This document shows, in pieces, positions 1 through 61,205 of a DNA stretch of 64,000 nt. The notes under the pieces were generated by a model. It ran no database searches, had not been told where the DNA came from, and saw only the letters and a program-made list of their open reading frames with translations. The DNA is taken from NCBI GenBank assembly GCA_020162035.1, contig JAIUNM010000002.1, positions 126,533 through 190,532 of the forward strand. Direction: 5' to 3'. A program made the position numbers and the translations under genes. The DNA comes from Bacteroidota bacterium. GTDB lineage: Bacteria > Bacteroidota > Bacteroidia > B-17B0 > Aurantibacillaceae. Each line of letters opens with the position of its first letter. Positions within the stretch are counted from its first letter, which is position 1.

Positions 1-719
1 AATTGTAATTTATAACCTGCCTGTAACTCAAAATTTATTAAATTGTTTTTAATTACAAAACTTGCTTGGCTTCCACTTCTATCAACACCTTCAACATCAA
101 ATTCTTTAAATAGATATTTATTATGGGTATCGTCAATAAACACACGTATCATACCACTTGTTGTGTTGCTTAAAGCTTTAATTGTAAGTGTTTCTATTCT
201 GGTTCCATTACTGCTTGCACTTGCTGTTAATCCCTCTACTAAAGTACCTGTACCGTTTAAGTTTGAGTTGGCAGTACTTAACAAATTAACGCCAGTGTTA
301 GCAGTAAAACGTGTACTTTCGGGCCTAACTGATGATGTGTAGTAAGTCCAATTTAAGCCTTGTGCAATTACATTAAAAGATTCAGAATTTTGTGTACTTG
401 CATACAATTTCCAATCTGCTTTTAATTTAATATCGCAATTCCATGTAAATTCAAAAGTTTGAGTAGTTGCTGCGTTTGTATTAGCAGGTATTTCAATTTC
501 TTGTACAATGTAATAAGAGGAGCCATTGTAAATAAAAATTCTAACCATACCTTGTGTGGTTGTAGTTTGTTGCGCTTTTACGGTTATAGTTTTAATTAAA
601 GTGCCATAAGCACTTGCCGTTAAAAGTAAACCTAGTGTACCAGTGCCATCTAAATTGCTATTAGCGGTTGATAGTGTAACAACCCCTGTGTTTGCTGTGT
701 ATTGTGTTTCTGCTGCCAT
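1..719 (-). CDS. Hypothetical protein (3'-partial, at least 239 aa) with two tandem copies of a ~125-aa beta-rich module; not in the ORF track
   Basis: Hand translation from ATG at 719 is stop-free to base 1: MAAETQYTANTGVVTLSTANSNLDGTGTLGLL...GMVRIFIY...STRFTANTGVNLLSTANSNLNGTGTLVE...GMIRVFID. Clearly paralogous to 732..1184. No signal peptide. Confidence 0.9.
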   Translation of the reverse strand, partial: MAAETQYTANTGVVTLSTANSNLDGTGTLGLLLTASAYGTLIKTITVKAQQTTTTQGMVRIFIYNGSSYYIVQEIEIPANTNAATTQTFEFTWNCDIKLKADWKLYASTQNSESFNVIAQGLNWTYYTSSVRPESTRFTANTGVNLLSTANSNLNGTGTLVEGLTASASSNGTRIETLTIKALSNTTSGMIRVFIDDTHNKYLFKEFDVEGVDRSGSQASFVIKNNLINFELQAGYKLQ

Positions 720-731
720 TTTATTTTTAAT

Positions 732-1184
732 TTATGGAAATATTATGTCTAATGCTTCAATTGCTATACTATAGGTTTCGGCATATTGGGTTGATGCTTT
801 AAGTGTTAAACCGGCACCAAAACTCCAATCAACATCATAGCTAACCTCAAACGATGGTTGAATGCTATTTTGTACTACCGCATTTATATTAAATTCTTCA
901 ATTAATCTGGTAGTTGAACCATCGTAAATAAATAATCTTACCATACCCCTTGTTGCATTAGCTAATGCTTTTATGGTAATTTTTTTTACCAATGAGCCAA
1001 CAGAACCAGTTGTTGCACCTGTACTTAAAACATTTGTTAAAGTTCCTGTTCCGTCTAAATTAGAATTAGCCACCGAAACTGTTGCAACTCCTGTGTTAGC
1101 CTCATAATGTGCTCTTTCGCCAATGTTTGAGTTTACCTCACTGTTTTTTAAACTAAAGCCTGTGTTTATTGATTCTACTAACAT
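732..1184 (-). CDS. Hypothetical protein, one copy of the ANTGV/ANSNLDGTGTL module
   Basis: 150-aa ORF containing ANTGVATVSVANSNLDGTGTL...TIKA...GMVRLFIY...ASTQ. Ends 12 bp before the ATG of its paralog at 719. Confidence 0.85.
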   Translation of the reverse strand: MLVESINTGFSLKNSEVNSNIGERAHYEANTGVATVSVANSNLDGTGTLTNVLSTGATTGSVGSLVKKITIKALANATRGMVRLFIYDGSTTRLIEEFNINAVVQNSIQPSFEVSYDVDWSFGAGLTLKASTQYAETYSIAIEALDIIFP

Positions 1185-1333
1185 ATTATTGTTTTTATTT
1201 AAAATAATTTTTACTTTTAAACATTATAAAAAATTAACAAGCTTCTAATAAATCTAAATTACAAATAGTAATAAGCATTTTGCAAAACATTTAGTTAGCT
1301 TTATGCGTAATATTTAACTCAATTTGTGTAAAT

Positions 1334-1715
1334 ATGAATATTAATTAATCAATCAATAAGAAAAATAAGAGAGTATAAAAACCTTACTCAAGAATATGTA
1401 GCCCAAGAAGTTGGTAAATCAAGAAAAACTTATGCAGAGATAGAAAATGGCAATGAGTTACCTAAAATTGAATTGCTCGAAAAAATTGCTCGTACATTAG
1501 GTGTTACCGTAGATGATATTATTAATTTTAGCAATAAAAACTTTTTACAATCTATATTTAAAGATAGTGCAAGCAACACAGGTGTTGTGTTTTCGTTAAA
1601 AGACGAAAACTCAGCTATTGAACTTAAAAATTTATATGAGAAATTATTATTAGAAAAAGATTTAAGAATAAAAGCAATTGAAGAATTAATTATAGAATTA
1701 AAAAGTTGTAAATAG
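1334..1715 (+). pseudogene. XRE-family HTH transcriptional regulator with a 4-bp duplication after codon 4 (or an intact gene using an ATA/ATT start)
   Basis: The frame of the 1473..1715 ORF extends upstream as INQSIRKIREYKNLTQEYVAQEVGKSRKTYAEIENGNELPKIELLEKIARTLGVTVDDII, a canonical XRE HTH. The ATG at 1334 is out of frame (ATG AAT ATT AAT TAA). C-terminal coiled coil. Confidence 0.8.
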
Positions 1716-16732: not shown

Positions 16733-17634
16733 TAATTTTTCTTTATCATCTTAATTAATTTGGGTAAATTATTTACTTTAACGTATTGATAGTTTAGTTC
16801 TTTACCGCCTAAACCTTTATAAAAATTAGCTAAACCAATATTTATTGAGCCGCCACCAAAATCGAAAAACTTTTTTGTATTTGAATAATGTTTAATTGCA
16901 AAATCTAATAATAAATGCATACTTCCTGAATTTTCATTTTTATCAAGTGTTGTGCCTTTTAAATACAAAACATAATTTGCATTGTAAATAAAAAAAGCAA
17001 TTGCAACAATTTTATTTTTTGGGTCTTTTGTAACCATGCAATGTAATGCATTAATATTTATAGCTTGATTTATTAATTTTGAAAATACCTTAAGTTGATT
17101 ATTTTTAATTGAAATACTTTTTAAAAAAGGGTATATATGCTTTTTAACTAAACTTTCAGAATCATTAGGATTGATAAATTGGGCTTGATAATTTAAAGAT
17201 TGTGCTTTTTTTATATTCCTAATTGTATTTTGATTGTAATTAATTTCATTTTTATAATCAATAATAAATGTTTTTTTGGGTTTTGTATTTGTGCTATTAA
17301 GTTTATTTGAATAATTAAATTCATATTCAATCAACTTAAATGTTTTTTTTATATAAGTGTAAAATTCAGATACAATTTCGGTTTTAGTATTTCCAAAGAC
17401 ACCTAATTGAGAGGTAAATGAAGGTTGAGGTAAATAAAGGATTCCTAATTTTTTTTTAAACGTCACAGGTAAAACAGACTCATAATCATTTAAAATTAAG
17501 GCGTCCCAATTAGGACTGGTAGCATTTAAATAAAAAGATTGAGCAAAAACTAAAGGTATAGGAGAATTAAGAATTACATTATCCCATTTTGCAAAATCAA
17601 TATTTTTATGTTTAATATAATTTAAACCTTGCAT
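16732..17634 (-). CDS. GNAT/FemAB-like protein
   Basis: KWDNVI, LPQPSFTSQLG, NTIRNIKKA, SMHLLLDFAI, FDFGGGS..GLANFYKGLGG. Confidence 0.7.
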   Translation of the reverse strand: MQGLNYIKHKNIDFAKWDNVILNSPIPLVFAQSFYLNATSPNWDALILNDYESVLPVTFKKKLGILYLPQPSFTSQLGVFGNTKTEIVSEFYTYIKKTFKLIEYEFNYSNKLNSTNTKPKKTFIIDYKNEINYNQNTIRNIKKAQSLNYQAQFINPNDSESLVKKHIYPFLKSISIKNNQLKVFSKLINQAININALHCMVTKDPKNKIVAIAFFIYNANYVLYLKGTTLDKNENSGSMHLLLDFAIKHYSNTKKFFDFGGGSINIGLANFYKGLGGKELNYQYVKVNNLPKLIKMIKKN

Positions 17635-18593
17635 TAAAACAAATGACGTTTTTTTAATTTTAATATAATTTCTATAGCTAAATTTCCTTTATTTACTGTG
17701 TAATATGGAATTAATTTTCCACCAAAGCCTCTAAAAAATTTTTCAACTCCAACTAACATACTTCCTTCAAAATCAAAAACACTACAGCCTAAATGTTTCG
17801 CATTTTCTATTGCTTTTAAAATTAATAAATTATTTATGCCTTGTATTTCGGAGTTTTTATTAGTGCCTCCAAATAAATAATAACAAGTTTTAGAATCGTA
17901 TGCGCAAAATACTGCACCAATTAAAACATTATTTGAATACGCTTCTATTGAAAATGAATTTTTATCATTTGCAAAATTTAAAAACAAAGCTTTAAGTTCT
18001 GTTTCGTAAACGTTTGCGCCTGCTTCAGTTAAACAATTTTTAAAATAATCGAATAAATTATTTTTTGATTGTTTATTAATTTCAATTATTAAATCGCTTT
18101 TTATGGCTTTTTTAATACTATTTCTGTTTTTTGGATCAAAATTTTGATTTAACTCTTCAATAGTTTTATTTAAATCAAGTTGATATGTATAATTTGGAAT
18201 TACTTTAAATTTATTCCAAATAAATGGCTGCATATCAATTACAGAAGTAGGAAAAGCTAAAATTGTTAGTGATGAATTTAGAGAGTTAAAGTATTCGCTT
18301 ATAAGTTTAATTGATTCTTTTAAAAATCCATTAATAATAGATTCATTATTTGCTTGTACTAAAATTCTTAGCCCACAATTAGGCGAATATGGCGGAAGTT
18401 TAATAAAATTAATTCCAAATTTTTTAATTTTATAATAATAAAAACTTCCAATTAATTTTTGTTCATCTTGAAATATGCCAACAAAATTTATATTTTCATT
18501 ATAAATAGAAACCCAATCTAACGTATTAAATACAGAACAATTTTCATTATTTAATGAGCTAAATTCTTGTATTGATATATCTTTTAAAAACAC
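17634..18593 (-). CDS. GNAT/FemAB-like protein (peptidoglycan-bridge glycyltransferase fold)
   Basis: YTYQLDL, NRNSIKKA, CYYLFGG, NNLLILKAIE, FDFEGSMLVGVEKFFRGFGG. Confidence 0.8.
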   Translation of the reverse strand: MFLKDISIQEFSSLNNENCSVFNTLDWVSIYNENINFVGIFQDEQKLIGSFYYYKIKKFGINFIKLPPYSPNCGLRILVQANNESIINGFLKESIKLISEYFNSLNSSLTILAFPTSVIDMQPFIWNKFKVIPNYTYQLDLNKTIEELNQNFDPKNRNSIKKAIKSDLIIEINKQSKNNLFDYFKNCLTEAGANVYETELKALFLNFANDKNSFSIEAYSNNVLIGAVFCAYDSKTCYYLFGGTNKNSEIQGINNLLILKAIENAKHLGCSVFDFEGSMLVGVEKFFRGFGGKLIPYYTVNKGNLAIEIILKLKKRHLF

Positions 18594-18596
18594 GTG

Positions 18597-19286
18597 TTAT
18601 TTGGTTCCTACAATAGTTATTATTCCTAAATTTTGATTACGAGCATTATAAGTAATTAACTTAGGCTGTAATCCTAATTTAATTAATTTGTTTTCGTAAG
18701 CCAATTTCATTTGTTGAGGTGTAACAATTGAAGCATTATTACAATTATAAAATTTTTCTCTTGCTTCAATCCATTCATTTACAAAATCGTTTGGGTGTGG
18801 GTGTAATTGAAGCATTATATTAATATTTGTTACAACATTTAACATTATAACAAACTCGTTGGCTACATTATTAAAAATGTTTTCAAAAAACAAAAAATGT
18901 TCAAAATTTTTATCATTATACTTAAATGGAACAGGTAAATCAATTAAAACGAAATTAAAATCATTTCGATTTAATTTATTATTAATTATAGCTTGAATAG
19001 AATCGCCACAATTAACATTAGCATTAGGAAATTCCTTTTTGGCATATTTAATGGCTTGCTCATTAATATCCCACATTTCTAAATAACTTGTTTCGTTGGC
19101 AAAAATTCTTGTCCATTGTAAACCTGTTTGGCAAAAGGCATCTAGAGCTACAAGTTTTTTAGGCCAAAAATTATAATCTTTTAAAGTTAAAATATTAAGC
19201 ATTAACGATGTAAACAATCTTTTGTTTTCGAAAGGTTTAATTAACTTAATAATAAATTTATTTTTATAATATAATTTAGAAACCAT
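18597..19286 (-). CDS. Hypothetical protein, degenerate class I SAM-methyltransferase-like
   Basis: ALDAFCQTG (motif I-like), MWDI acidic residue, CGDS, VLIDLP. Confidence 0.5.
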   Translation of the reverse strand: MVSKLYYKNKFIIKLIKPFENKRLFTSLMLNILTLKDYNFWPKKLVALDAFCQTGLQWTRIFANETSYLEMWDINEQAIKYAKKEFPNANVNCGDSIQAIINNKLNRNDFNFVLIDLPVPFKYNDKNFEHFLFFENIFNNVANEFVIMLNVVTNINIMLQLHPHPNDFVNEWIEAREKFYNCNNASIVTPQQMKLAYENKLIKLGLQPKLITYNARNQNLGIITIVGTK

Positions 19287-49610: not shown

Positions 49611-50195
49611 ATGAAATCTATTATTAAATTAACAACAACATTAGTTCTAACTAATTTTTTATTAAAATCTCAAACAACAAGCTATGGATTAGTCAATAAA
49701 TTGAATGAGACGATAACAAGTGCCACTGATACCGCTAATTTGGCACCTATTGTTAAGGCTGCTCCCAACACATACGTTGTTAGTACAAATAACAAAGTTT
49801 CCTCAACTCAAAACGATATTAAAACCACTTGTTTAAATGGAAATATAGCAGTACAGTGGAGTCAACAACATAATGCAGGGGTTAATAAAGCGTTTAGCAC
49901 TGCCAATGCAAGAGATAATGCCGGGAATATTATTGTGGTTGGAAGTACAAACACTGGAGGGATAAATGGTCAGGATATCACTGTAATTAAATACGCACCA
50001 TCAGGTGGTATACCCATTTGGGTCAAATATTATAATGGACCGGGCAACAGTTATGACGTTGCTTCTTCACTAGTTGTAGATGCCGCAAACAATATTTATG
50101 TTACTGGAGCAAGTGTTGGAGGTTTTTTTCAACAAATAGATTATGTGACTATTAAGTTTAATTCAAACGGAACGCAACTATGGGCTTCTTTCTAG
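49611..50195 (+). CDS. N-terminal fragment of the split protease gene (signal peptide + SBBP repeats)
   Basis: MKSIIK...KSQ signal peptide; WVKYYNGPGNSYDVASSLVVDAANNIYVTG repeat; premature TAG. Confidence 0.6.
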   Translation: MKSIIKLTTTLVLTNFLLKSQTTSYGLVNKLNETITSATDTANLAPIVKAAPNTYVVSTNNKVSSTQNDIKTTCLNGNIAVQWSQQHNAGVNKAFSTANARDNAGNIIVVGSTNTGGINGQDITVIKYAPSGGIPIWVKYYNGPGNSYDVASSLVVDAANNIYVTGASVGGFFQQIDYVTIKFNSNGTQLWASF

Positions 50196-50301
50196 ATACA
50201 ATTTTAGCAACGGAATTGATATTCCGACAGGAATTTGCCTTGATAATTCTGGAAATGTAGTTGTTAGTGGAAGCAGTTCGTCTAATTCCTTTAATAGTAA
50301 T

Positions 50302-53085
50302 ATGGATTTTACAAGTGTAAAATATAATTCAACAACAGGAACACAATTACAGGTTCAAAGACAAGCGAATACAGGGAATGCAAAGGATGTTGTGACAGCT
50401 CAAACTAAAGATGCTTTTGGTAATATTTACATAACAGGCAGCACAAGCAGTAATGGAATTGATTTTGATATCCAAACCATTAAATATGATCAAAACATGA
50501 ATTTAATTTGGGTGAAAACATTGGATGGTTATGGCAAAAGTGATCAAGGGAATGATATTGTTGTTGACCCATCTGGAAATGTATATGTTACAGGTTATTT
50601 AACAAGAACCAATCTTACAAAAGAATTGCTCTTATTGAAATATGATAATTTGGGTAATGTTATCTATCAAACGAAAAAACAACCATTATTTAATAACAGT
50701 GATGCCGAAGGAATCAAATTGCAATATAAAAGCGCAAATGAAATTTTTGTTGGGGGGAATTTCACGAAAAATAATAATAAGGATATTGCGGTCTTACGTT
50801 TCGATAATAATGGAAAGCAAACTTTGGAAACTGTTTATAATGGCATTAGCAATTTAAAAGACGAACTATTAGATTTACTAGTTGACAATAATTTTTTTAT
50901 TGTAAGTGGGAAAACATTTAATGGAACTATAGATCAAAATATAACAATTAAATATGAATACAAAGATTTTAATCAAACCCCTGTCTTTATTAGTCCAACT
51001 GAAGAAGTTTCACAAAATGAATTAATTATTAGGTTTAATGTGAACGACTTAAATCTTCCAAAAATTAATGATAAAGGTTTTAAGTTTGGGATTCTAAGTG
51101 ATTTTTTGAGTACCACAGTTTGCAATAGAATGGACTCAGTCTTGAATAAAGATTGTGTTTTTAGATCAGCAGACCTTGAGACAAGAAAGATTTTTTATAA
51201 TGCAACAACTAATGATACAGTCTCCATTTCTAGAATGGGCAATCCGGTTAAGTTACCACCAGTATTTAGTAGTTTATTAATTCGTTTTCCTGAGTGTGTA
51301 AAGTTAAACACTATTATTAGTGAACTTAATGGAATTAGTAACCATATTGTCAGCTCAAATTACAATAGAGTTTACCGATTAGCCTCAAACGATCCTGAAT
51401 TTCCTTTACAACATAGCTTAAAACAGTTTCCTTTATATCCAAATTCAAGCACAAATGTAGATTCAGCCTGGGCATTTACAACAGGGGAGAATTTCATTAA
51501 AGTTGGTGTTTTCGACTCCGGAATAGAGTTTAATCATTCAGATTATTCTGGTGCTAACACTGGCGGGTTCGATTATTTCAATAATTCAAGTTTATCAAAT
51601 CAAGACGATGGAAATCACGGGACTGCAGTTTCAGGGGTAATAGGCGCCGTAAGAAATAATGGCATAGGGATGGCTGGTATAGCAGGAGGAGATGCTTCTA
51701 TAGGTAAACAAGGAGTAACTATGCATGATTGCAAAGTATGTTCTTTTGGTTCATGTTACACTAATCATATTATTAATGGAATTTATACCGAAGTCACTAG
51801 TCCAAGCGTTGGCGGAAATGGCCTAAATGTTTTAAATTTTAGCATCGGTACTGGTGGGGCTCAAAATCCATTTAATTTATATTGGCCGGAAACCGAACAA
51901 TTGAATTTAGCTAACAAACATGGAGTAGCAATGGCTGCTGCTAAAGGTAATTTTAATGCAGTAACTATTATTTTCCCAGCAGACATTAGTGACGAAATAG
52001 TTATGGCAGTTGGTTCATCAGGAACAGATGGGAATTATTGTGTTCTTGGCACTAATTGTTCAAATCTTTCTTCTCGTGGTTCTAATATTGATTTTATTGC
52101 ACCCGGAACGGATTCTCTTGTAAAAACTCTTAATCCTGCCAACAGTTATTCTCGAAGAAGTGGCACTTCTGTTGCTGCACCTCATGCTGCTGGAGCTGCT
52201 GCATTGATGATGGGATACATAAATACTACAAGCCCTTCTTGGGACAATATTGCTGGAGAAGATTGTGAGTATATTTTACAACGAACAGCAACTGATATAA
52301 CCACTGGTACTTATTCTGAAACCGTAGGCTACGACGAAGCAACTGGATGGGGAAGAATTAATATTGGAAGAGCATTAGCTAAAATAAAGAAAGGTTTTTA
52401 CACTATAAAACATATAGACTTAACGCATTTTGCAACAGGAGTTAAAACATCTACTCCAATTGCAGTTAATGTGGTGCGAAATTGGCCTCAATTACAAGGG
52501 GTGCCTCAAGGGACGCATAACACAATTGTTTATGAACAAACCACTACATTAAACTTTTCTTTATCACCTACTCAAAGTTTGATAGCAGTTTGGCCACATA
52601 CTAAGGAGTGTGTTGGAAACAGGGACTCAAGTACAATAAGGGTAGATCGTCCTTATTATTGCGAAGTTGTATCTTTCAGCCAAAGTCAAGTTGTTTTAAG
52701 AACTTATTTCCATTATTCTACATTACATAATAAATTTTACCCTGCAGATAATACTGGGGTAAATGCAGCTGCTTCTCTTTATATTTTTGATCCTACTGGT
52801 GTTATGAGTGTTAAGGAACTAGATAATACAATTTTCGAACTTCAATCTTTTCCAAATCCTACAGGTGATATTCTTTACGTTGACTTTTTTTGTAATAAGT
52901 CCGCAAAGGTTCAATTAATCTTGCGAGATATAATTGGTAAGACTCTTATGGTGGAGAATAGAAATATTGTTCCTGGTAATTACCAACATAAAATGGATAT
53001 TCAAAATTTACCTTCTGGAGTTTATTTTTTGAGTATTGTTGATGATGAGGTAAGTCGAAAAACTATTAAAGTAATAAAAAAATAA
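50302..53085 (+). CDS. C-terminal fragment of the split protease gene (SBBP repeats, S8 domain, CTD); no signal peptide
   Basis: DAFGNIYITG and DPSGNVYVTG repeats, S8 triad, type A CTD. Confidence 0.7.
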   Translation: MDFTSVKYNSTTGTQLQVQRQANTGNAKDVVTAQTKDAFGNIYITGSTSSNGIDFDIQTIKYDQNMNLIWVKTLDGYGKSDQGNDIVVDPSGNVYVTGYLTRTNLTKELLLLKYDNLGNVIYQTKKQPLFNNSDAEGIKLQYKSANEIFVGGNFTKNNNKDIAVLRFDNNGKQTLETVYNGISNLKDELLDLLVDNNFFIVSGKTFNGTIDQNITIKYEYKDFNQTPVFISPTEEVSQNELIIRFNVNDLNLPKINDKGFKFGILSDFLSTTVCNRMDSVLNKDCVFRSADLETRKIFYNATTNDTVSISRMGNPVKLPPVFSSLLIRFPECVKLNTIISELNGISNHIVSSNYNRVYRLASNDPEFPLQHSLKQFPLYPNSSTNVDSAWAFTTGENFIKVGVFDSGIEFNHSDYSGANTGGFDYFNNSSLSNQDDGNHGTAVSGVIGAVRNNGIGMAGIAGGDASIGKQGVTMHDCKVCSFGSCYTNHIINGIYTEVTSPSVGGNGLNVLNFSIGTGGAQNPFNLYWPETEQLNLANKHGVAMAAAKGNFNAVTIIFPADISDEIVMAVGSSGTDGNYCVLGTNCSNLSSRGSNIDFIAPGTDSLVKTLNPANSYSRRSGTSVAAPHAAGAAALMMGYINTTSPSWDNIAGEDCEYILQRTATDITTGTYSETVGYDEATGWGRINIGRALAKIKKGFYTIKHIDLTHFATGVKTSTPIAVNVVRNWPQLQGVPQGTHNTIVYEQTTTLNFSLSPTQSLIAVWPHTKECVGNRDSSTIRVDRPYYCEVVSFSQSQVVLRTYFHYSTLHNKFYPADNTGVNAAASLYIFDPTGVMSVKELDNTIFELQSFPNPTGDILYVDFFCNKSAKVQLILRDIIGKTLMVENRNIVPGNYQHKMDIQNLPSGVYFLSIVDDEVSRKTIKVIKK

Positions 53086-53088
53086 TTT

Positions 53089-53766
53089 ATGATTTTGTTT
53101 TCGAGGTTTTTGATTTTTTTTATTTTGGTTTTCATGTTAAATTTTGATTTAATAGCTCAAACATTCGTTAGTGTTCAAAATCCAACAGTATTGCCAAACC
53201 AACCAAGTACAAGCAGTAATATTAAAATTGCAACTAGAGTTACTACTCCAAGCATTGGTTGGAAGGTATCAAGCAATTATAATATTCTTAGTTCGATTTC
53301 TACTATAGAATTAAAAGGTTCATACTGCGATGGATTATTACCAGGCGGAATTCCAATCAATGACACCTTGAGTATTGGAAATTTAGCTGTAGGGGTTTGG
53401 ACAGTTAACTTCAGAGCCTATTATGGTAGTCAGTTTTTAACTAATTGCGGCATAACGGATAGTGTTTTAAAAACCGTTACATTTACTATTAGCTTAACAA
53501 ATTCAATTAAGGATGATACAACGCCTACAGGATTTAGTATTTATCCAACTTTAGTTATAAATGATTTAAAAATAGATGTTATTGATGCTAATGCTAAATT
53601 GCCAATTGAGGTTGTAGTTATAAATTGTATTGGTCAAATTGTTGAAAGTTATTCATTACCGAATAAAACAAACTCATTAAATCTTAATCATTTAAAGCAA
53701 GGAATATATTTCGTGAAGTTGAAATCAGGACCTTCATCAAGCATTAAAAAAATAATCAAGAATTAA
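53089..53766 (+). CDS. Small T9SS cargo protein (uncharacterised Ig-like domain + type A CTD)
   Basis: Signal peptide ending AQ; IYPTLV..LKQGIYFVKL..KKIIK. Starts 3 bp after the protease stop. Confidence 0.85.
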   Translation: MILFSRFLIFFILVFMLNFDLIAQTFVSVQNPTVLPNQPSTSSNIKIATRVTTPSIGWKVSSNYNILSSISTIELKGSYCDGLLPGGIPINDTLSIGNLAVGVWTVNFRAYYGSQFLTNCGITDSVLKTVTFTISLTNSIKDDTTPTGFSIYPTLVINDLKIDVIDANAKLPIEVVVINCIGQIVESYSLPNKTNSLNLNHLKQGIYFVKLKSGPSSSIKKIIKN

Positions 53767-54274
53767 TTCGATTTTTTTTATACAAAGGCACTGTACTGCA
53801 AGGCTCGCCATACATAATGCTTTTAACGTGTGGTTGTAACAATGCTGTTAATTGTACATAAGCATTTTTAGGTAAATCTACATCGCCACAACCTTTAATA
53901 ACTATGCGCGCATCTTTAAATTCGTTAACTTCTATACCAGCCAACTTATCTGCAAATAAAAGTGTTTCTAATGTTTGTAAATCACCAAATATAATTTTAC
54001 AGGCAAAAGGTTGCAGGGCAATGGTTAACAGCATATATGCCCAAGTAGGAACTATTGCATCTGCGGTACAAGTAAGTGCAACAAATTTATTTTTATAACT
54101 GCTCCAGTCTGTATTTTTAATATATTCTCTAAAATCTTTTTCTTTTAAAATTAACTCATTAAATAATAAAGGTTTTATATCAAAAAGAACTCTTTCTCCT
54201 TTGGTATAAAATTCTTCTAAATCAATAGTTACAATGCCACTATTACTTACTTTATTTACAATTTCTTCTTGCAT
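53756..54274 (-). CDS. DUF2480-like protein
   Basis: EIVNKVSNSGIVTIDLE, LKEKDFRE, DAIVPTWAYML, VIKGCG, SIMYGEPCSTVPLYK. Confidence 0.88.
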   Translation of the reverse strand: MQEEIVNKVSNSGIVTIDLEEFYTKGERVLFDIKPLLFNELILKEKDFREYIKNTDWSSYKNKFVALTCTADAIVPTWAYMLLTIALQPFACKIIFGDLQTLETLLFADKLAGIEVNEFKDARIVIKGCGDVDLPKNAYVQLTALLQPHVKSIMYGEPCSTVPLYKKNRINS

Positions 54275-54277
54275 TTT

Positions 54278-54607
54278 TCACATAAATCCAAGTTCAAGTT
54301 GAGCTACCTCGCTCATCATTTCTTTTGTCCAACTGGGTTCAAAAGTTAAAACTAATTCGGTTGAACTTATACCTTGTAATAATTTACATTTACCTTCAAC
54401 TTCTGCGGGTAATGTTTCTGCCGCAGGACAGTTAGGTGAGGTTAATGTCATAACAATTTTTAAATTATTCTCTGCATTTAAATGTAGTTCATAAATCAAA
54501 CCGAGTTCCCATACATCAACTGGTATTTCTGGGTCATAGCAAGTTTTAATTTCATCAATTACCCTTTGCATTAATTCAGTATTTTCAGTTACAATTATTG
54601 CTGCCAT
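54278..54607 (-). CDS. SUF Fe-S cluster assembly protein (DUF59/MIP18, SufT-like)
   Basis: YDPEIPVDVWELGLIY, MTLTSPNCPAAE, TFEPSWTKEMMS. Confidence 0.93.
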   Translation of the reverse strand: MAAIIVTENTELMQRVIDEIKTCYDPEIPVDVWELGLIYELHLNAENNLKIVMTLTSPNCPAAETLPAEVEGKCKLLQGISSTELVLTFEPSWTKEMMSEVAQLELGFM

Positions 54608-54615
54608 TCAATTTA

Positions 54616-54623
54616 CAAAGTTA
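54616..54623 (-). promoter_or_regulatory. Bacteroidota -7 promoter element
   Basis: TAACTTTG on the minus strand just upstream of the DUF59 ATG. Confidence 0.5.
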
Positions 54624-54653
54624 TAATATTTTTTAGAATTAATCTAAATAAAA

Positions 54654-55724
54654 TTATAATCCCCCTTCTTTTAGTCGCTCAGCATTTTCGGCAAATTGTA
54701 ACTTATCAATCATTTCTTGAATGTCGCCATTTACAAAGTTTTCTAAATCGTATAAAGTTTCATTAATTCTATGATCAGTAATTCTATTTTGAGGGTAATT
54801 ATACGTTCTAATTTTTGCGCTTCTATCTCCTGTAGTTACCATAGTTTTACGACGCTTACTTACTTCTTCTAAACGCTTTTGATATTCAATATCGTATAAC
54901 TTACTACGTAACATTTGCATTGCTTTTTCTCTATTACCAAGCTGGTTACGCTCAGTTTGGCACATCACAACCATTCCACTTGGTTTATGTGTTAAAATAA
55001 CTTTACTTTCTACTTTATTTACATTTTGTCCACCTGCTCCACCGCTTCGGGCGGTTTGCATTTCTATATCGCTTTCTTTTAATTCAACATCAAATTCTTC
55101 GGCTTCGGGTAATACAACAACTGTTGCAGCACTTGTATGAACTCGACCTTGGGTTTCTGTAGCAGGCACACGTTGTACACGGTGTACGCCACTTTCAAAT
55201 TTTAAAACGCCATAAGCTCCTGGCGCAATTACGTTAAAAATAATTTCTTTATAACCGCCCATTGTGCCTGGGTTACTATCTACTACTTCAATTTTATAGT
55301 TTTTGTTTTCACAAAAACGGCTATACATTTCAAATAAATTACCTGCAAAAATACTGGCTTCATCGCCACCTGTTCCTGCACGTAGTTCCATTACACAGTT
55401 TTTAGAATCTTCAGGGTCTTTCGGAATTAACATTAATCGAATTTCTTCGGTTAATTTATTTTCTTTTTCTCTGTTTTCCTCCAATTCTATTTTAGCCATT
55501 TCTAAAAAATCTTTATCTTTTTCGTTAGCTAAAACTTCTTTTGCACTTTCTATATTGCTTAATGTTTTTTTATAATCGTTAATTAACTCAACAACTTCGC
55601 CTAATTCTTTGTACTCAATATTTAATTTTTTAAATAACTTCATATCTGAAACTGTCGCAGGATCAGATAATTTTAATTCGACATCTTGGTATCTTCTTTT
55701 TATTTCTTCGAGTTTGTCTAACAT
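54654..55724 (-). CDS. prfA: Peptide chain release factor 1
   Basis: [17 protein letters not shown] (PxT, RF1-type), [23 protein letters not shown]. Confidence 0.97.
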
Positions 55725-55789
55725 TTTAACAATTTAAAATAGCCTATAAAGATACAGTATTTTCCTAATTAAGTAATTGAAATTTTTAA

Positions 55790-55797
55790 TACTTTTG
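55790..55797 (+). promoter_or_regulatory. Bacteroidota -7 promoter element
   Basis: TACTTTTG 22 nt upstream of the ATG at 55820. Confidence 0.5.
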
Positions 55798-55819
55798 GTT
55801 ATTAACCTATAGTGTAAAT

Positions 55820-58273
55820 ATGAAAAATATTTTTTTACATTTCTTTTTAATTTTACTAATTTATTCTAAAAGCATAAACGCTCAAGATTATCTTGGTTTA
55901 CAAAGTTCTAATTATGCAGGAGTATCAAGCATATACTCTAATCCGGCAAATATTGCTGATAATAGAATGAAGTTTGATTTAGTACTTGGTGGAATTAACT
56001 TTATTGCCGAAAATAATTATGTTTCGGTTAAACGCTCTGCTTTAAAATACGAAGGAAAACTTACTGACCCCTCAAACATAAAAATGCCTGCATCGTGGGA
56101 TAATTACGATAAAAATTCGCCTGATTATTGGCGAAATAATTTTAGAATCGTAAACTCTAAAGGAGATAAAACTGTTTATTCTAAAACTAGGGTTACTATG
56201 CCTTCGTTTATGGTAAACATTAATAATAAAAACTCCATTGCGTTTACTTGGAGTATAAGAAATTACTTAAATGTTGATGGTATTTCTCAAGATTTAGCAA
56301 CCCTTGCTTTTCAAGAATTTAATTACCCAAGTTTATTTATTCAAAAATTAGAAAATAAACGTTTAAGTATTCAAGAAATGGCTTGGGCAGAATATGGTTT
56401 AACTTATGGAAGAGTGTTAAAACAAGACGGTGCGCATTTTTTAAAAGCAGGAGCAACAGTAAAATTATTGCAAGGTTTAGGTGCAGCCTATTTTTTTGTT
56501 GATAATTTAAAATACGAATTTATAGCAGATACAACCCTTTCATTATTTCAATCACATGTTCAATATGGCCATAGCGATAATGTAGATTTTACAAACCAAA
56601 ACAATATTAAATATCAATTTAAATCTTACCCTGGTGTTGGGTTTGATGTGGGCATGGTTTATGAGTGGAGGCCCGATTTTGAAAAATACAAATACGATAT
56701 GGATGGCGAAAAAGGTTTATGGAGAAATGATCAAAATAAATATAAATTAAAACTAAGTTTAGCAGTTAATGACATTGGAAGTATAAGATATAAATTAGGG
56801 ACGTTAGCTAATAATTTTCAAGCAGATATTGGATATTGGAATGTAAAAGATGTTAAAGTTAACTCTGTTGGAGGATTTGATACATTAATGTTAAATATGT
56901 TTCCTAGCAAAAGAGAGGGTGATGATTTTAGAATGATGTTACCAACTACAATAAATGCAAATGCTGATTACCATATTTGGAAACCATTTTATGTAAACTT
57001 TATGGTTAATGCTGGTAATTTTTATAAAAATAAAGCAACAAAAGTTACTGAATATTCTCTTATTAGTTTAACTCCACGTTTTGATCATAAATGGTTTGGT
57101 GTATCTGTTCCTATTAGCTGGGGCTCTATAGCTTCTGTAAGACACGAAGATTTAATGTTAGGTTCTATGGTTAGATTAGGCCCATTGGTTTTAGGTGTAA
57201 ATAACTTACTTGGTTTAGTTTCTAAAGATATGTATGGTGTTGATTTTTATACCATGCTTAAAGTTCCTATACCTTACGGTAAACCTAAAGACAAAGATAA
57301 AGATGGAATTAGTAACAAAAAAGATTTGTGTGTTGATGTACCAGGAGTTTGGGAATTTATGGGTTGCCCTGATAAAGATGGAGATCATATACAAGATAAA
57401 GATGATAAGTGCCCTGATGTTGCAGGTGTAAAAGAATTACAAGGTTGCCCTGATAAAGATGGAGACGGAGTTACAGATTCTGAAGATGCTTGCGTAGATG
57501 TGCCAGGCTTAAAAGAATTTAAAGGATGTCCTGATAAAGACGGTGATAAAATTATTGATAAAGACGACGAGTGCCCTGATGACGCAGGTTTAGTTGAATT
57601 TATGGGTTGCCCTGATAAAGATGGCGATGGAACACCTGATAAACTAGATGCTTGTCCAGATTTATTTGGTCCAAAAGAATACAAAGGTTGCCCTGATAAA
57701 GATGGAGATACTGTTTTAGATAAAGACGATGCTTGCCCTGATGTTAAAGGCCCAGTTGAAAATAAAGGTTGCCCATATCCTGATACAGATAAAGATGGAG
57801 TGTTTGATAAGGACGATGCTTGCCCAACTACACCAGGTTTAGTTGAGTTAAAAGGTTGCCCACCTCCTCCACCAATGAAAGAAGCTGAAAAGAAAATTTT
57901 AGAAAAAGCTTTTGAAAGTTTAGAATTTGCTACAGGCAAGGATATTATTAAAAAAGTATCATATGCATCATTAAATGATTTAGCTAAATTAATGGTTGAA
58001 CATAAAACAGATTGGAAATTAAAATTAAGTGGACATACAGATAACCAAGGTGATGCTGCAAAAAACATGAAATTATCTGAAAAACGCAGTAAAGCAGTTA
58101 AAGCTTACTTAGTTAAAAAAGGTGTGCCAGTTGATAATATTGCCACAGAGTGGTTTGGCTCAACTGTTCCTATTGCAGATAATAATACAGAAGCAGGAAG
58201 ACAAAAAAACAGAAGGGTTGAAATGAAAGTGAATTTTAGAGAAGGAAGTGAAAAATTAGAAAAGAAATTTTAA
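55820..58273 (+). CDS. Outer membrane protein: DUF5723-like barrel + thrombospondin type 3 repeats + OmpA domain
   Basis: GLQSSNYAG..NPANIAD; seven DxDxDG..D.CP..G..GCP repeats; LEFATGK, GHTD, LSEKRS, NRRVE. Confidence 0.92.
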   Translation: MKNIFLHFFLILLIYSKSINAQDYLGLQSSNYAGVSSIYSNPANIADNRMKFDLVLGGINFIAENNYVSVKRSALKYEGKLTDPSNIKMPASWDNYDKNSPDYWRNNFRIVNSKGDKTVYSKTRVTMPSFMVNINNKNSIAFTWSIRNYLNVDGISQDLATLAFQEFNYPSLFIQKLENKRLSIQEMAWAEYGLTYGRVLKQDGAHFLKAGATVKLLQGLGAAYFFVDNLKYEFIADTTLSLFQSHVQYGHSDNVDFTNQNNIKYQFKSYPGVGFDVGMVYEWRPDFEKYKYDMDGEKGLWRNDQNKYKLKLSLAVNDIGSIRYKLGTLANNFQADIGYWNVKDVKVNSVGGFDTLMLNMFPSKREGDDFRMMLPTTINANADYHIWKPFYVNFMVNAGNFYKNKATKVTEYSLISLTPRFDHKWFGVSVPISWGSIASVRHEDLMLGSMVRLGPLVLGVNNLLGLVSKDMYGVDFYTMLKVPIPYGKPKDKDKDGISNKKDLCVDVPGVWEFMGCPDKDGDHIQDKDDKCPDVAGVKELQGCPDKDGDGVTDSEDACVDVPGLKEFKGCPDKDGDKIIDKDDECPDDAGLVEFMGCPDKDGDGTPDKLDACPDLFGPKEYKGCPDKDGDTVLDKDDACPDVKGPVENKGCPYPDTDKDGVFDKDDACPTTPGLVELKGCPPPPPMKEAEKKILEKAFESLEFATGKDIIKKVSYASLNDLAKLMVEHKTDWKLKLSGHTDNQGDAAKNMKLSEKRSKAVKAYLVKKGVPVDNIATEWFGSTVPIADNNTEAGRQKNRRVEMKVNFREGSEKLEKKF
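57289..57858 (+). repeat. Coding tandem repeat, seven ~81-bp units (TSP3-like Ca-binding repeats)
   Basis: GGxTGxCCTGATAAAGAxGG recurs near 57361, 57442, 57523, 57604 and 57685 with 81-bp spacing. Confidence 0.9.
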
Positions 58274-58289
58274 ACAAACTTTAACTAAT

Positions 58290-58325
58290 AAAAACCGCAG
58301 ATTAATACTCTGCGGTTTTTTGTTT
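58290..58325 (+). terminator. Intrinsic terminator
   Basis: AAAAACCGCAGA / TCTGCGGTTTTT stem with a 7-nt loop, then a T-rich tract. Confidence 0.88.
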
Positions 58326-58357
58326 TTACTACTTTTATTTAATTCAAAAAAAATAAT

Positions 58358-59566
58358 TTGAAAAGAAAACAAATATTATTTTATTTTTTTCCAACGTTAC
58401 TCGCTTTTTGTTTGCCTTTTGGCGGCTATGCTCTATCTTATATTATAATTGGTTGGTTGGCTTTATCTTTTTTTAATTTAAAAAAAGAAAAATTAATTTC
58501 CGGAATTAAAAAACCACAATTTATACTTAGTTTGTTTTTTTTTATTTACACACTAATATCTGCTATAGCTTTTGATGGAGTTGAAAAATGGAATAGCATT
58601 GAAATAAAATTAAGCTTTGCTATAATGCCTTATTTATTTTTTTGTTTTGAATATCCATTTATAATTATTCAACGCATTATTGTTGGTTTTGTATCTGGGA
58701 GTTTTTTTGCTTGTATTATACTTTTATGTAGAGGGATTTATTTTGCAGTTAATGGTCAAACAAACTATTTAACCTACTCCGATTTTTCTTATTTTATGCA
58801 TACAGCCTATTTTTCGTTGTATTTATGCTTAGCGTTATTAATTATAAATTTATATTACCCAATTTGGTTCAAGTCTGCTCGTTCACTTCTTAATTTTTCA
58901 AAAATAATGGGAGTACTTTTTACAGTTTGCATTCTTTTATGTGCATCAAAAATTGGCATTTTATGTTTAATATTAGTATATGGTTTTATTGGTTTTACAA
59001 AATTTAAAGGCAAATTAACTTTAACTAAAGGTTTAATAATTTTTGCATCATTGGTAGTTTTGTTATTAGCCACACTAAAATTTGTACCTGCAGTTTATGC
59101 AAGGTTTGATAATTTAATCCATTTAAATATTAATCAACTCAACAAACAGTCAAGCGAAAGTTCAGAAGTAAGAGTATTAATTTGGGAACAATGTTTAGAT
59201 ATAATTAAAACTAATTTTTTTATAGGCGTTGGTGTAGGAAATGCAAATGATACTTTATATCATTATTATGCAAAATATGGATTAACAGGTGCGTTAGACC
59301 ATAAATTAAATGCGCATAATCAGTTTTTTCAAACAGGAATTGGTTTAGGCATATTAGGGGTATTACCTTTGTTAGTGCTTTTAATGTTTGGTTTATATAA
59401 AACTATTAAAACTAATTTTATTTTATTTGTTTTAAGTTTACTTATAATTTTAAATTTTTTAACCGAAAGCATGCTTCAATCAGCGGCTGGTGTACTTTTT
59501 TTCTGTTTCTTCACTAATTTATTTTTTAATTTTAATTCGAAAACATTAAGTGAAAATAAGGAATAA
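58358..59566 (+). CDS. O-antigen ligase family protein
   Basis: Many TM segments; HTAYFSLY, SKIG, RVLIWE, GVGVG, NAHNQFFQ..GILG, ESML. Confidence 0.9.
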   Translation: MKRKQILFYFFPTLLAFCLPFGGYALSYIIIGWLALSFFNLKKEKLISGIKKPQFILSLFFFIYTLISAIAFDGVEKWNSIEIKLSFAIMPYLFFCFEYPFIIIQRIIVGFVSGSFFACIILLCRGIYFAVNGQTNYLTYSDFSYFMHTAYFSLYLCLALLIINLYYPIWFKSARSLLNFSKIMGVLFTVCILLCASKIGILCLILVYGFIGFTKFKGKLTLTKGLIIFASLVVLLLATLKFVPAVYARFDNLIHLNINQLNKQSSESSEVRVLIWEQCLDIIKTNFFIGVGVGNANDTLYHYYAKYGLTGALDHKLNAHNQFFQTGIGLGILGVLPLLVLLMFGLYKTIKTNFILFVLSLLIILNFLTESMLQSAAGVLFFCFFTNLFFNFNSKTLSENKE

Positions 59567-61205
59567 AATAGTTTTATTATTTTTAATAATAGTTTCAATT
59601 AATAAAGGTCAAAATTTTTCGTGGCCTTTAGATAGCCCAATTATAATTACTGGGAATTATGGTGAGTTAAGACCAAATCATTTTCATGCAGGGATAGATT
59701 TTTCAACTGGTGGTAAAATAAATAAACCCATTTACGCAACTGCATCTGGTTATGTATCTAGAATTAAAGTTAGTGCTACTGGATATGGCAAAAGTATATA
59801 CATTACACATCCAAATGGGATAGTTAGTGTGTATGCTCATTTAAACTCATATAATAAATTAATTGCAGAACTTGTTTTAAAAAAACAATACGAATTAAAA
59901 AGTTTTGAAATTGATTTTAACTTAAATCCAAACACAATAAATATAACTAATAAAGAAATGATTGGCTTTTCTGGCAACACAGGAAATTCAACAGGGCCGC
60001 ACCTCCATTTTGAATTACGTAACGAAAAAACTGAAGTACCTGCAAATGTTTTAAATTATTTTAAAATAAACGATACTGTTAAACCTAAATTAAATGCAAT
60101 TGCAATATATAATTTAGCAGATACAACAATGCCTCATGTTTTAGCAACATTAAAAATTAAAACTGATAAAAATAATTTATTACGATTATACAAAGACACC
60201 ATTAGTTTAAAATATAATATTTTAGGTTTAGGTTTTAGTGGCTTTGATTTAATGCGAGATAAAGGAAGTATTAATAACATATTTGCTGCATCTGTAACAC
60301 TTGACAATAAATTAATTTATAATCATGAATTAAACAATATTTCATTTGCAGATCAAAGGTATGTTAATGAGTTTAGCGAAGTAATTGAAAAACAAAAATA
60401 CCAACGTTGTTTTATACCTACCTTATTTCCTAAAGAAATGTATTCTACCTATTTTAGAAAAGGAAGAATTATACTAACCGATACACTTGTTCATGAAATA
60501 ACCTTAACAGTTAGTGATGAAGCATATAATCAATCGGTTTTAAAATTTTGGATAAAAGCTAAAAAGCTGGCGCCTTATTTGCCCCCTACAATTAAAAGTA
60601 ACGATTTTGTAGATTGTACAAAAGATTTTTTAATCTTAAAAAATAAACTACAAATATTTATACCAGCAAACACATTATATAAAAGCACAAATTTAATTTT
60701 TGAAAATACAATTGAAAGAAGTGGGAAATTAATAATTTTACCAAGCGAAGCTAATTTAAAATCAACAAGTATTGTAGGATTTGAAGTTCCTAAAAAATAC
60801 CTATCTGTTAAAAATAAATTAATTTTAAACAGTGGGGTTAATACTTTTATTCCTATAAATGTAAACGATTCTATATTTTATTCAGTTAAAAATTTTGGTT
60901 GGTTTCAATTAAATGTTGATACGATTAAACCTAAAATAAAACTACTTTATAGAGTTACTAAAACAAAAACACAAAAAAATATTAATTCAATTGATTTTAA
61001 AATTACAGACGATGAAAGTGGTATAGGGAAATACAATTTGTATATTAATGATAAATGGGCTTTGGCCGAATATGACGCAAAAAATGATTTACTTAATTAC
61101 ACAATTGATGGTGAAACCCCAACAGGCAATGTTAAATTTAAATTAGAAATTGAAGATAAAGTTAAAAATGTAAATACATTAAACTTTGAACTAGATTTAA
61201 AATAA
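59550..61205 (+). CDS. M23-family metallopeptidase
   Basis: GNYGELRPNHFHAGIDF, YAHL, SGNTGNSTGPHLHFELR. Confidence 0.93.
   Translation: MKIRNKIVLLFLIIVSINKGQNFSWPLDSPIIITGNYGELRPNHFHAGIDFSTGGKINKPIYATASGYVSRIKVSATGYGKSIYITHPNGIVSVYAHLNSYNKLIAELVLKKQYELKSFEIDFNLNPNTINITNKEMIGFSGNTGNSTGPHLHFELRNEKTEVPANVLNYFKINDTVKPKLNAIAIYNLADTTMPHVLATLKIKTDKNNLLRLYKDTISLKYNILGLGFSGFDLMRDKGSINNIFAASVTLDNKLIYNHELNNISFADQRYVNEFSEVIEKQKYQRCFIPTLFPKEMYSTYFRKGRIILTDTLVHEITLTVSDEAYNQSVLKFWIKAKKLAPYLPPTIKSNDFVDCTKDFLILKNKLQIFIPANTLYKSTNLIFENTIERSGKLIILPSEANLKSTSIVGFEVPKKYLSVKNKLILNSGVNTFIPINVNDSIFYSVKNFGWFQLNVDTIKPKIKLLYRVTKTKTQKNINSIDFKITDDESGIGKYNLYINDKWALAEYDAKNDLLNYTIDGETPTGNVKFKLEIEDKVKNVNTLNFELDLK

Follow-up and report, generated by a model that had tools for sequence, protein, structure and literature searches.

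A set of predicted jelly-roll genes with relatives in phage tail modules as the putative constant head of polymorphic peptide loci in Bacteroidota

The leftmost genes of a 64,000-nucleotide stretch of Bacteroidota DNA (the window; positions 126533-190532 of contig C2, JAIUNM010000002.1, in GenBank assembly GCA_020162035.1, a 3.17-Mb genome in 31 contigs) belong to an operon of three uncharacterized paralogues, here termed M1, M2a and M2b, which are built from copies of a module of about 125 amino acids and are divergent from a gene for an XRE-family regulator. From a comparison of such loci across the phylum, in which most of the data are sequences of metagenome-assembled genomes (MAGs), we contend that the M genes are best read as constant genes at the head of a polymorphic locus for peptides, including ribosomally made, post-translationally modified peptides (RiPPs). 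The comparison suggests that M is an accessory part not described so far, added to gene clusters of kinds already known.

The loci compared comprise 28 GTDB loci encoding relatives of M2a, to which loci found in metagenomes and by searches of genomes were added, and 29 of them extend for at least 2 kb downstream of the M genes. Nearly all of the 28 GTDB loci, and further metagenome loci as well, have M1 first and then between one and three M2 genes. RiPP maturases are carried by 23 of the 29 loci, on the same strand in 22, and these divide into 14 loci with ATP-grasp/SPASM maturases and nine with LanC/LanB; an ATP-grasp gene also starts in three shorter loci outside the 29. Counted from the end of the last M gene, the maturases mostly start after 0.3-2.5 kb; those of locus L031 are encoded on the opposite strand at a distance of 2.8-7.5 kb. 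The open reading frame (ORF) that comes next behind the M genes encodes a hypervariable peptide in nearly every locus, on the same strand and at a gap of 12-60 bp in almost all, and the six loci without maturases keep such an ORF, which is mostly Cys-rich. The window's genome itself harbors one M locus of each maturase type, with ATP-grasp/SPASM on C2 and LanB/LanC on contig C10. Of 400 genomes sampled evenly across the phylum, two others only had the module, and in both of them the genes for a precursor, LanC and LanB stand directly behind M. The presence of M thus strongly predicts a RiPP cassette, while most RiPP cassettes are without M.

Comparison with a sister strain (locus L010) shows that the precursor and maturase cassette is exchanged behind constant M genes. 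The two DNAs are 98% identical over the XRE, M1, M2a and M2b genes, with 97.5-100% identity of the proteins encoded there, whereas outside M the protein identity drops to 39% for the precursor, 42% for the ATP-grasp enzyme and 32% for the SPASM enzyme. The homology at the DNA level ends about 40 bp or less after the last M gene and returns, at 94% identity, past the SPASM gene. In a tree of SPASM proteins, that of the window groups with the one from a different species (L013) and that of the sister strain is located elsewhere.

This constancy bears on the possibility that the M proteins confer self-immunity by sequestering the mature peptide in the producing cell. The M proteins are cytoplasmic, and the cluster contains no classical immunity gene besides that of a marginal CPBP-like protein, both of which would suit such a role. 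Immunity proteins normally co-vary with their toxin, however, whereas M keeps 98-100% identity across an exchange of the cassette and is common to two RiPP classes with unalignable cores. Because M remains constant while the cargo changes, we consider a function in immunity extremely improbable. More generally, M is conserved across homologues (45-73% identity) while the cargo peptides cannot be aligned, which argues against any core-specific binding and for a role that is independent of the cargo.

We propose that M1, M2a and M2b would assemble into a cytoplasmic hetero-oligomer that works on the peptide encoded immediately downstream, irrespective of the chemistry of that peptide. The most likely mode of action would be binding of the complex to a shared N-terminal leader tag (MKKxEKLK or xKLSLF), so that M would serve as a scaffold or carrier in the handling, release or delivery of the peptide, and the precursor with its ATP-grasp/SPASM or LanB/LanC maturases would form the exchangeable cassette behind the M platform. 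A tag of this type begins 21 of 30 ORFs located after M as compared to 11 of 254 background ORFs, the pattern having been chosen post hoc, so that the p-value is no more than an indication. Judged from sequence, the proposal that the M proteins co-assemble and act on a tagged peptide regardless of chemistry, as a leader-binding scaffold or carrier, has in our view about an even chance of being correct. A role of the M proteins as the precursor or substrate was considered separately and rejected, given that they have 150-420 residues, are nearly free of Cys and are common to lanthipeptide and graspetide loci.

Several observations weigh against the scaffold or carrier proposal. There is no exporter or secretion signal at the M loci that would take a carrier complex out of the cell. 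The tag motif was defined with the data in view, and genomes rich in AT often encode proteins with Lys-rich N-termini. Six loci have no recognizable maturase, and in one of them (L054) the M genes are followed by unrelated proteins of about 270 residues. The SPASM tree gives no resolved M-linked lineage (support 41/49). Both the XRE gene and the ATP-grasp gene at the C2 locus are frameshifted, so that this cassette may be inactive, or the frameshifts may be assembly errors. The SPASM family TIGR04193 occurs in nine of the 400 sampled genomes and M in none of these nine; as M is missing from other grasp-with-spasm genomes, it is dispensable for that chemistry and possibly merely co-located with the cassettes.

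Co-location is also what would be expected if the M operon were an independent assembly, domesticated from a phage tail-fibre module and serving its own function, for instance as a lectin-like adhesin, a decoy or a surface structure; RiPP and bacteriocin cassettes would then gather beside it at a recombination hot spot or via a shared regulator. In line with this, homologues in phages sit in tail modules, M operons without maturases behind them exist (L012, L024, L036, L054 and L066), ordinary grasp-with-spasm loci do without M, and the distribution is patchy, with the M operon in nine of 48 other species of the window's genus and one copy borne on an integrative and conjugative element (ICE). 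An independent assembly does not, however, account well for a peptide gene that, in almost all loci, stands on the strand of M at a gap of 12-60 bp, for the same arrangement with two unrelated maturase classes, or for a variable peptide ORF that holds its position even in loci without maturases. Also, the M operon comes without other phage genes, and its products have neither a signal peptide nor the C-terminal tail of the type IX secretion system (T9SS), hence no evident route to surface display. We therefore regard an independent assembly as rather unlikely.

The closest relatives of the module are indeed proteins of about 130 residues with a single module, encoded in the tail-fibre modules of tailed phages. 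Phage homologues match the module hidden Markov model (HMM) at E values of 1e-18 to 1e-35 (hmmsearch) and have 29-43% identity to M2a (tblastn). The best structural matches, found in BFVD, are uncharacterized proteins of tailed phages with template modeling (TM) scores of 0.78-0.83, root-mean-square deviations (rmsd) of 1.0-1.7 Å and up to 43% identity, and A0A5Q2WA97 and A0A6J5RT91 are examples of these single-module relatives. A scan of IMG/VR gave 11 loci, eight of which have single-module ORFs that match the HMM (seven of 126-137 residues, one of 217 residues with an insert) and share the motifs ANTNLDGTGT and GM[VI]RLF with the cellular modules. In Pseudanabaena phage Pam2, from the GenBank phage collection, the homologue gp55 (UQS94935.1) follows directly after an annotated tail fibre gene; in three further phage contigs the neighbors of the homologue match PHROGs for minor-tail, tail-fibre and tail-fibre-assembly proteins; and a prophage in a chromosome of 4.26 Mb has the homologue as the last gene but one of an apparent tail module. 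The supplements of the Pam2 paper leave gp54-56 unmentioned and hence give no virion-proteome support for gp55. The original prediction, made from the letters of the window alone, had pointed to a resemblance to small proteins encoded near phage tail-fibre genes, and this resemblance is borne out in Pam2, in the IMG/VR contigs, in the prophage and in the BFVD matches.

The phage family and the cellular M proteins have homology over the whole module of about 125 residues and the same predicted fold. They differ in their organization: the phage proteins consist of 125-137 residues, and their genes have tail-fibre or minor-tail genes in front and a tail-fibre-assembly-like gene behind, whereas the cellular genes are paralogues with one, two or three modules in a fixed operon ahead of RiPP cassettes. 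In the loci surveyed, no phage genes surround the cellular M operons, whose neighbors are regulators and RiPP genes. The original prediction had suspected the edge of a larger regulated cluster, such as a domesticated phage-derived structural module or a family expanded by duplication. A larger cluster exists, as about 5 kb more of the locus lies to the left of the window, but it is not a phage-like structural gene set; it consists of a precursor gene with ATP-grasp/SPASM or LanB/LanC maturases. M itself may represent a domesticated structural module. It can further be speculated that M1 and M2 constitute a tail-fibre-derived jelly-roll particle or fibre-like carrier that captures peptides by their tag and releases them or delivers them to target cells. 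We hold this for a minority possibility, although such a carrier would, if true, be a new device for the delivery or packaging of modified-peptide toxins, independent of chemistry and with freely exchangeable cargo.

A maximum likelihood tree of 89 modules places the phage single modules on one side of a branch with 100/93 support and the cellular modules on the other. Among the latter, the C-terminal modules of M2 form one clade (92/83) and the N-terminal modules of M2 together with M1 form another (97/92), within which 15 of the 17 M1 modules share a clade (99/95). Given that M1, M2-N and M2-C are separate and well-supported clades, the tandem duplication and the paralogues are old and have kept their positional identity, which also means that the subunits are not redundant. 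The suspected family expansion by duplication is thereby borne out in the form of position-specific subfamilies, and the retained module positions are as expected for non-redundant subunits of one assembly. The single-module phage branch comprises 1,212 clusters. An exhaustive profile search gave 2,136 representative clusters, of which 1,214 have E <= 1e-10. A search with M2a in a collection of 5.8 billion proteins found 474 homologues at E <= 1e-3; among the best 120 of these, the source name, where given, is 'hypothetical protein' and the organism labels are MAGs of Bacteroidia or Bacteroidota.

The scans of the M proteins against Pfam, NCBIfam, PHROGs and PADLOC gave nothing above threshold, with no NCBIfam match at all, and the phage homologues likewise matched no curated family. 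The best sub-threshold matches of the module were DUF4957 (15.6 bits; cut-off 30.8) and DUF7298 (15.7 bits; cut-off 27) in Pfam, phrog_4817 (E 0.004) among the PHROGs and a PADLOC match at E 0.0037 across 27 residues, and a profile search of all PDB sequences with the module returned 0 matches. The description of the module as uncharacterized thus held in each of these collections.

The AlphaFold2 model of M2a, built from an alignment of 50 sequences, has two eight-stranded beta-sandwiches (predicted local distance difference test, pLDDT, 93.1; predicted TM score 0.89), and that of M1 has one eight-stranded sandwich with residues 1-25 disordered (pLDDT 82). At the level of the domain, Foldseek matches in the PDB are generic self-assembling jelly-rolls at TM 0.34-0.54, including satellite-virus capsids, TNF-family trimers, the TNF-like lectin BC2L-C, a phage penton and the Ena and ExsF subunits of spore appendages. 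Eiger, CD40L and BC2L-C compare with the single module at TM 0.41-0.49 and rmsd 5.5-7.8 Å, which indicates the general fold class only, and the STMV/SPMV capsids (satellite tobacco mosaic and satellite panicum mosaic virus) and the phage penton do so at TM 0.34-0.48. The fold class predicted by the models is clearly that of a jelly-roll, and no solved family is closely related. For the two-module model nothing in the PDB was better than TM 0.33, and its sole match to a double-jelly-roll capsid in BFVD is that of Gluconobacter phage GC1 (TM 0.28). An assignment as enzyme or double-jelly-roll capsid was set aside since the PDB matches are loose (TM <= 0.33). The phage homologues are encoded in tail rather than head modules.

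The Foldseek list of the two-module model is headed by the tandem beta-sandwich enzymes GH172, PHM and PNGase F, so that M could be imagined as a set of tandem jelly-roll enzymes adding a common modification to the peptide that follows. Several polar positions that are invariant (D24, R60, E74, T109, R132, E206 and T242) would be compatible with a catalytic role. Yet these enzyme matches reach TM 0.19-0.33 only, the invariant columns of the module hold no conserved His, Met or Cys set that could provide ligands, the same positions are conserved in the single-module proteins of phage tail modules, and a set of paralogues with 1+2+2 modules would be unusual for an enzyme. An enzymatic function appears very unlikely to us.

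Given the homology to a large phage family (1,212 clusters; 29-43% identity to M2a), a system of phage defense or conflict also has to be weighed, in which M would be a sensor or decoy that interacts with phage tail parts as these enter or are being assembled, and the RiPP would be its effector. Lanthipeptide-type systems have been reported in phage defense, the cassettes are hypervariable and patchily distributed, and one locus each lies beside an operon of the cyclic-oligonucleotide-based anti-phage signaling system (CBASS) and on an ICE. On the other hand, M matches no PADLOC model and a known defense system adjoins one of about 38 loci only. The regulators, LytTR with TPR-kinase and GerE, resemble those of peptide-bacteriocin or quorum circuits, and the phage homologues sampled are from cyanophages and other non-Bacteroidota contexts. 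We judge an anti-phage role to be improbable.

Among systems already described, the ATP-grasp/SPASM loci are among those closest to the M locus on C2. Makarova et al. (2022; PMC8939145) presented 'branch 5' graspetide loci of Bacteroidetes with precursors, a small 'LPL' protein and a family of secreted lipoproteins, and a search of its main text by term turned up neither phage nor jelly-roll nor beta-sandwich proteins, nor do the associated families described in it fit M. The window's locus resembles these grasp-with-spasm systems in its SPASM and ATP-grasp maturases, the small ORF between them and the upstream precursor. As described, the known systems have double-glycine leaders, LPL, secreted lipoproteins and often a C39 ABC exporter, with no component like M, whereas the precursors linked to M differ in their N-terminal leader and are encoded without an exporter in the vicinity. 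Double-glycine leaders are likewise found in the canonical grasp-with-spasm loci without M in our own data, one of which also has a C39 ABC exporter. Similarly, the C10 locus and eight others resemble the class I lanthipeptide clusters of Bacteroidota in their Cys/Ser/Thr-rich precursor, LanC, LanB and, often, S41 peptidase, and differ from such clusters in being without LanT/LanP and LanFEG/LanI. To our knowledge, M genes are not among the components of lanthipeptide clusters. In the literature on grasp-with-spasm systems, on Bacteroidota lanthipeptides and on RiPPs combined with jelly-roll or tail-fibre proteins, no description of M was found.

The leader-binding auxiliaries of RiPP pathways, such as the PqqD-like RiPP recognition element (RRE) and LPL, a proposed precursor chaperone, offer a functional analogy only, namely non-catalytic recognition of a leader while the cores vary. 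In contrast to RREs, which are winged-helix domains of small size, M is a multi-paralogue set of predicted jelly-rolls and is common to two maturase classes having their own leader recognition. With polymorphic toxin and bacteriocin loci the M loci share constant upstream genes, a sharp break point, a cassette that differs between strains of 98% identity, an apparent relic of an earlier cassette and a patchy or ICE-borne distribution. In such toxin and bacteriocin loci the constant part is a recognized secretion or delivery protein (Rhs, CdiA or tailocin fibres); in the M loci it is an uncharacterized cytoplasmic set of predicted jelly-rolls, and the cargo is a RiPP.

RiPP clusters have been mined intensively, yet family databases do not contain the three-gene M module. 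Through this one constant set of proteins, with a putative ancestry in phage tails, two RiPP classes of unrelated chemistry and some apparently unmodified Cys-rich peptides are connected, and M provides a first cellular context for a large uncharacterized family of phage tail-module proteins (>1,200 clusters). If M binds the leader or carries the peptide, this would explain the handling of the product in Bacteroidota clusters without exporters. It would also give genome mining a handle, as the ORF next to M would be a new peptide, and it could be exploited in engineering as a scaffold independent of chemistry.

In the window, M1 occupies 732..1184 on the minus strand (150 residues, one module; an ORF with a module HMM match at E 1.6e-58). 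M2a, on the same strand, fills 1..719 of the window and is complete at C2:126466-127251 (261 residues, two modules); bases 3-719 encode residues 1-239, and the remaining 22 codons and the stop end 66 bp to the left of the window. M2b (C2:125657-126454, minus strand) lies entirely to the left and has 265 residues from its ATG and two modules. The gaps are 12 bp between M1 and M2a and 11 bp between M2a and M2b. The original prediction had placed two ORFs at 732..1184 and from 719 to beyond the edge, 12 bp apart and pointing away from the XRE gene, and had noted the motifs [YF]xANTGV, ANSNL[DN]GTGT, GM[VI]RxF and ASTQ and a lack of signal peptides; all of this agrees with what we found, the last two motifs reading GM[VI]R[LIV]F and ASTQ/ATQ, and the leftward extension that it called for completed the truncated gene and added the third, which gives five modules in total. 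The N-termini of the two M products in the window, MLVESINTG... and MAAETQYTANTG..., were read directly, and none of the three M proteins shows a signal peptide or a hydrophobic segment on such reading. M1 carries an N-terminal extension of about 25 residues, in which its orthologues, when aligned, keep the motif ...TNINERxKYTANTG. When the proteins are cut at the repeat, the five modules measure 128-150 residues each and have 16 invariant positions at pairwise identities of 30-50%, a similarity that is far beyond chance. An HMM of these five modules finds its own members at E values of 1e-58 to 1e-61 and has ten matches in the genome, five at the C2 locus and five in the second operon on C10.

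The intergenic region at 1185..1333, between M1 and the divergent XRE gene, presumably holds the promoters and operator; a sigma-70 consensus scan of this region gave matches at chance level, the consensus being unsuited to Bacteroidota. The regulator gene (about 1334..1715, plus strand) has an extra TAAT at 1342-1349 in a DNA and protein comparison with the 98%-identical sister strain, where its 125 residues are intact, and the frameshift leaves an 80-residue C-terminal ORF only; for its paralogue at the C10 locus, the match to HTH_3 has an E value of 1e-10. On the coding strand, no terminator-like site was found between M1 and the SPASM gene. Across the loci compared, the regulators upstream of M operons comprise XRE proteins, GerE-type response regulators and a TPR-histidine kinase with LytTR.

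The main locus (L001, C2:112000-129000) continues for about 5 kb to the left of the window rather than ending at its edge, and is a grasp-with-spasm graspetide system. All of its genes behind M are on the minus strand. The putative precursor (C2:125372-125644, 90 residues) has the leader MKKKEKIK... and a C-terminal end rich in Cys, Thr and Asp; it matches no NCBIfam or Pfam model and has no ...LxxIxGG double-glycine leader of the TIGR04139, TIGR04149 or PF14406 type. It is followed by a 149-residue protein with a signal-peptide-like N-terminus (C2:124911-125360), the ATP-grasp maturase (C2:123566-124542), a small ORF in the position of LPL (C2:123394-123570) and the SPASM maturase (C2:122335-123390, 351 residues), which exceeds the cut-off of TIGR04193 with 251 bits versus 175. 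The ATP-grasp gene scores 130 bits against TIGR04192 (cut-off 230) as measured on a broken ORF of 279 residues. Its frame changes at an A9 run (C2:123727-123740, equal to L001:11728-11741), and the final 58 residues, including ...EINPVGQF..., are encoded in a different frame; a pseudogene, a tract prone to phase variation or slippage, or an assembly error could each account for it. Farther on are a CPBP/Rce1-like membrane protein (C2:~121632-122273; about 213 residues with an EExxxR motif), whose match to PF02517 is marginal (22.6 bits; cut-off 22.4) and which is without an ATG start, and a relic of a SPASM C-terminus (C2:121455-121562; 75% identity over 36 residues) that resembles a remnant of an earlier cassette. 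The CPBP-like gene was seen at this locus and in the sister strain only.

The second operon of the genome (C10, ~50000-60000) is a class I lanthipeptide cluster and reads, from a divergent XRE gene, M1, an M protein of 423 residues, M2, a precursor of 77 residues with 7 Cys, LanC (PF05147, 124 bits), LanB (PF04738, 392 bits; PF14028, 200 bits) and an S41 peptidase. The 423-residue M protein has a third domain of about 150 residues, again with a YTANTG motif, and the ANSNLDGTGT loop is missing from M1 of this locus as well as from that of L012, L014 and L022.

Within the window's genus, the loci L012, L013, L015, L017 and L022 encode a Cys-rich protein, graspetide cassettes or a lanthipeptide cassette behind M. 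The Cys-rich peptide after M is followed in L024 by a thioredoxin-like (CxxC) protein (L024:11710-12803); in L012 (L012:11626-12817), what follows is a small membrane protein with multiple passes, together with an ABC transporter encoded divergently; these peptides are possibly disulfide-rich, unmodified bacteriocins. In the metagenome locus L054 (L054:8687-14532), M1 and three M2 genes precede, in place of RiPP genes, two repeats of a gene pair that encodes a protein of about 271 residues and one of about 190-210 residues resembling an outer-membrane beta-barrel. One M/RiPP locus is directly beside a CBASS operon with CD-NTase, TIR-STING and E1/E2/JAB genes (L064:664-7650), and another is on an ICE with integrase, relaxase and coupling protein (L065:1716-2762, 17378-18801), where the S41 peptidase bears a T9SS Por_Secre_tail. 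The contigs of L010, L014, L019 and L031 are labeled 'uncultured Akkermansia sp.', 'Candidatus Saccharibacteria' or 'Minisyncoccia'; their gene content is of the Bacteroidota type, and they are probably mis-binned or mislabeled MAGs.

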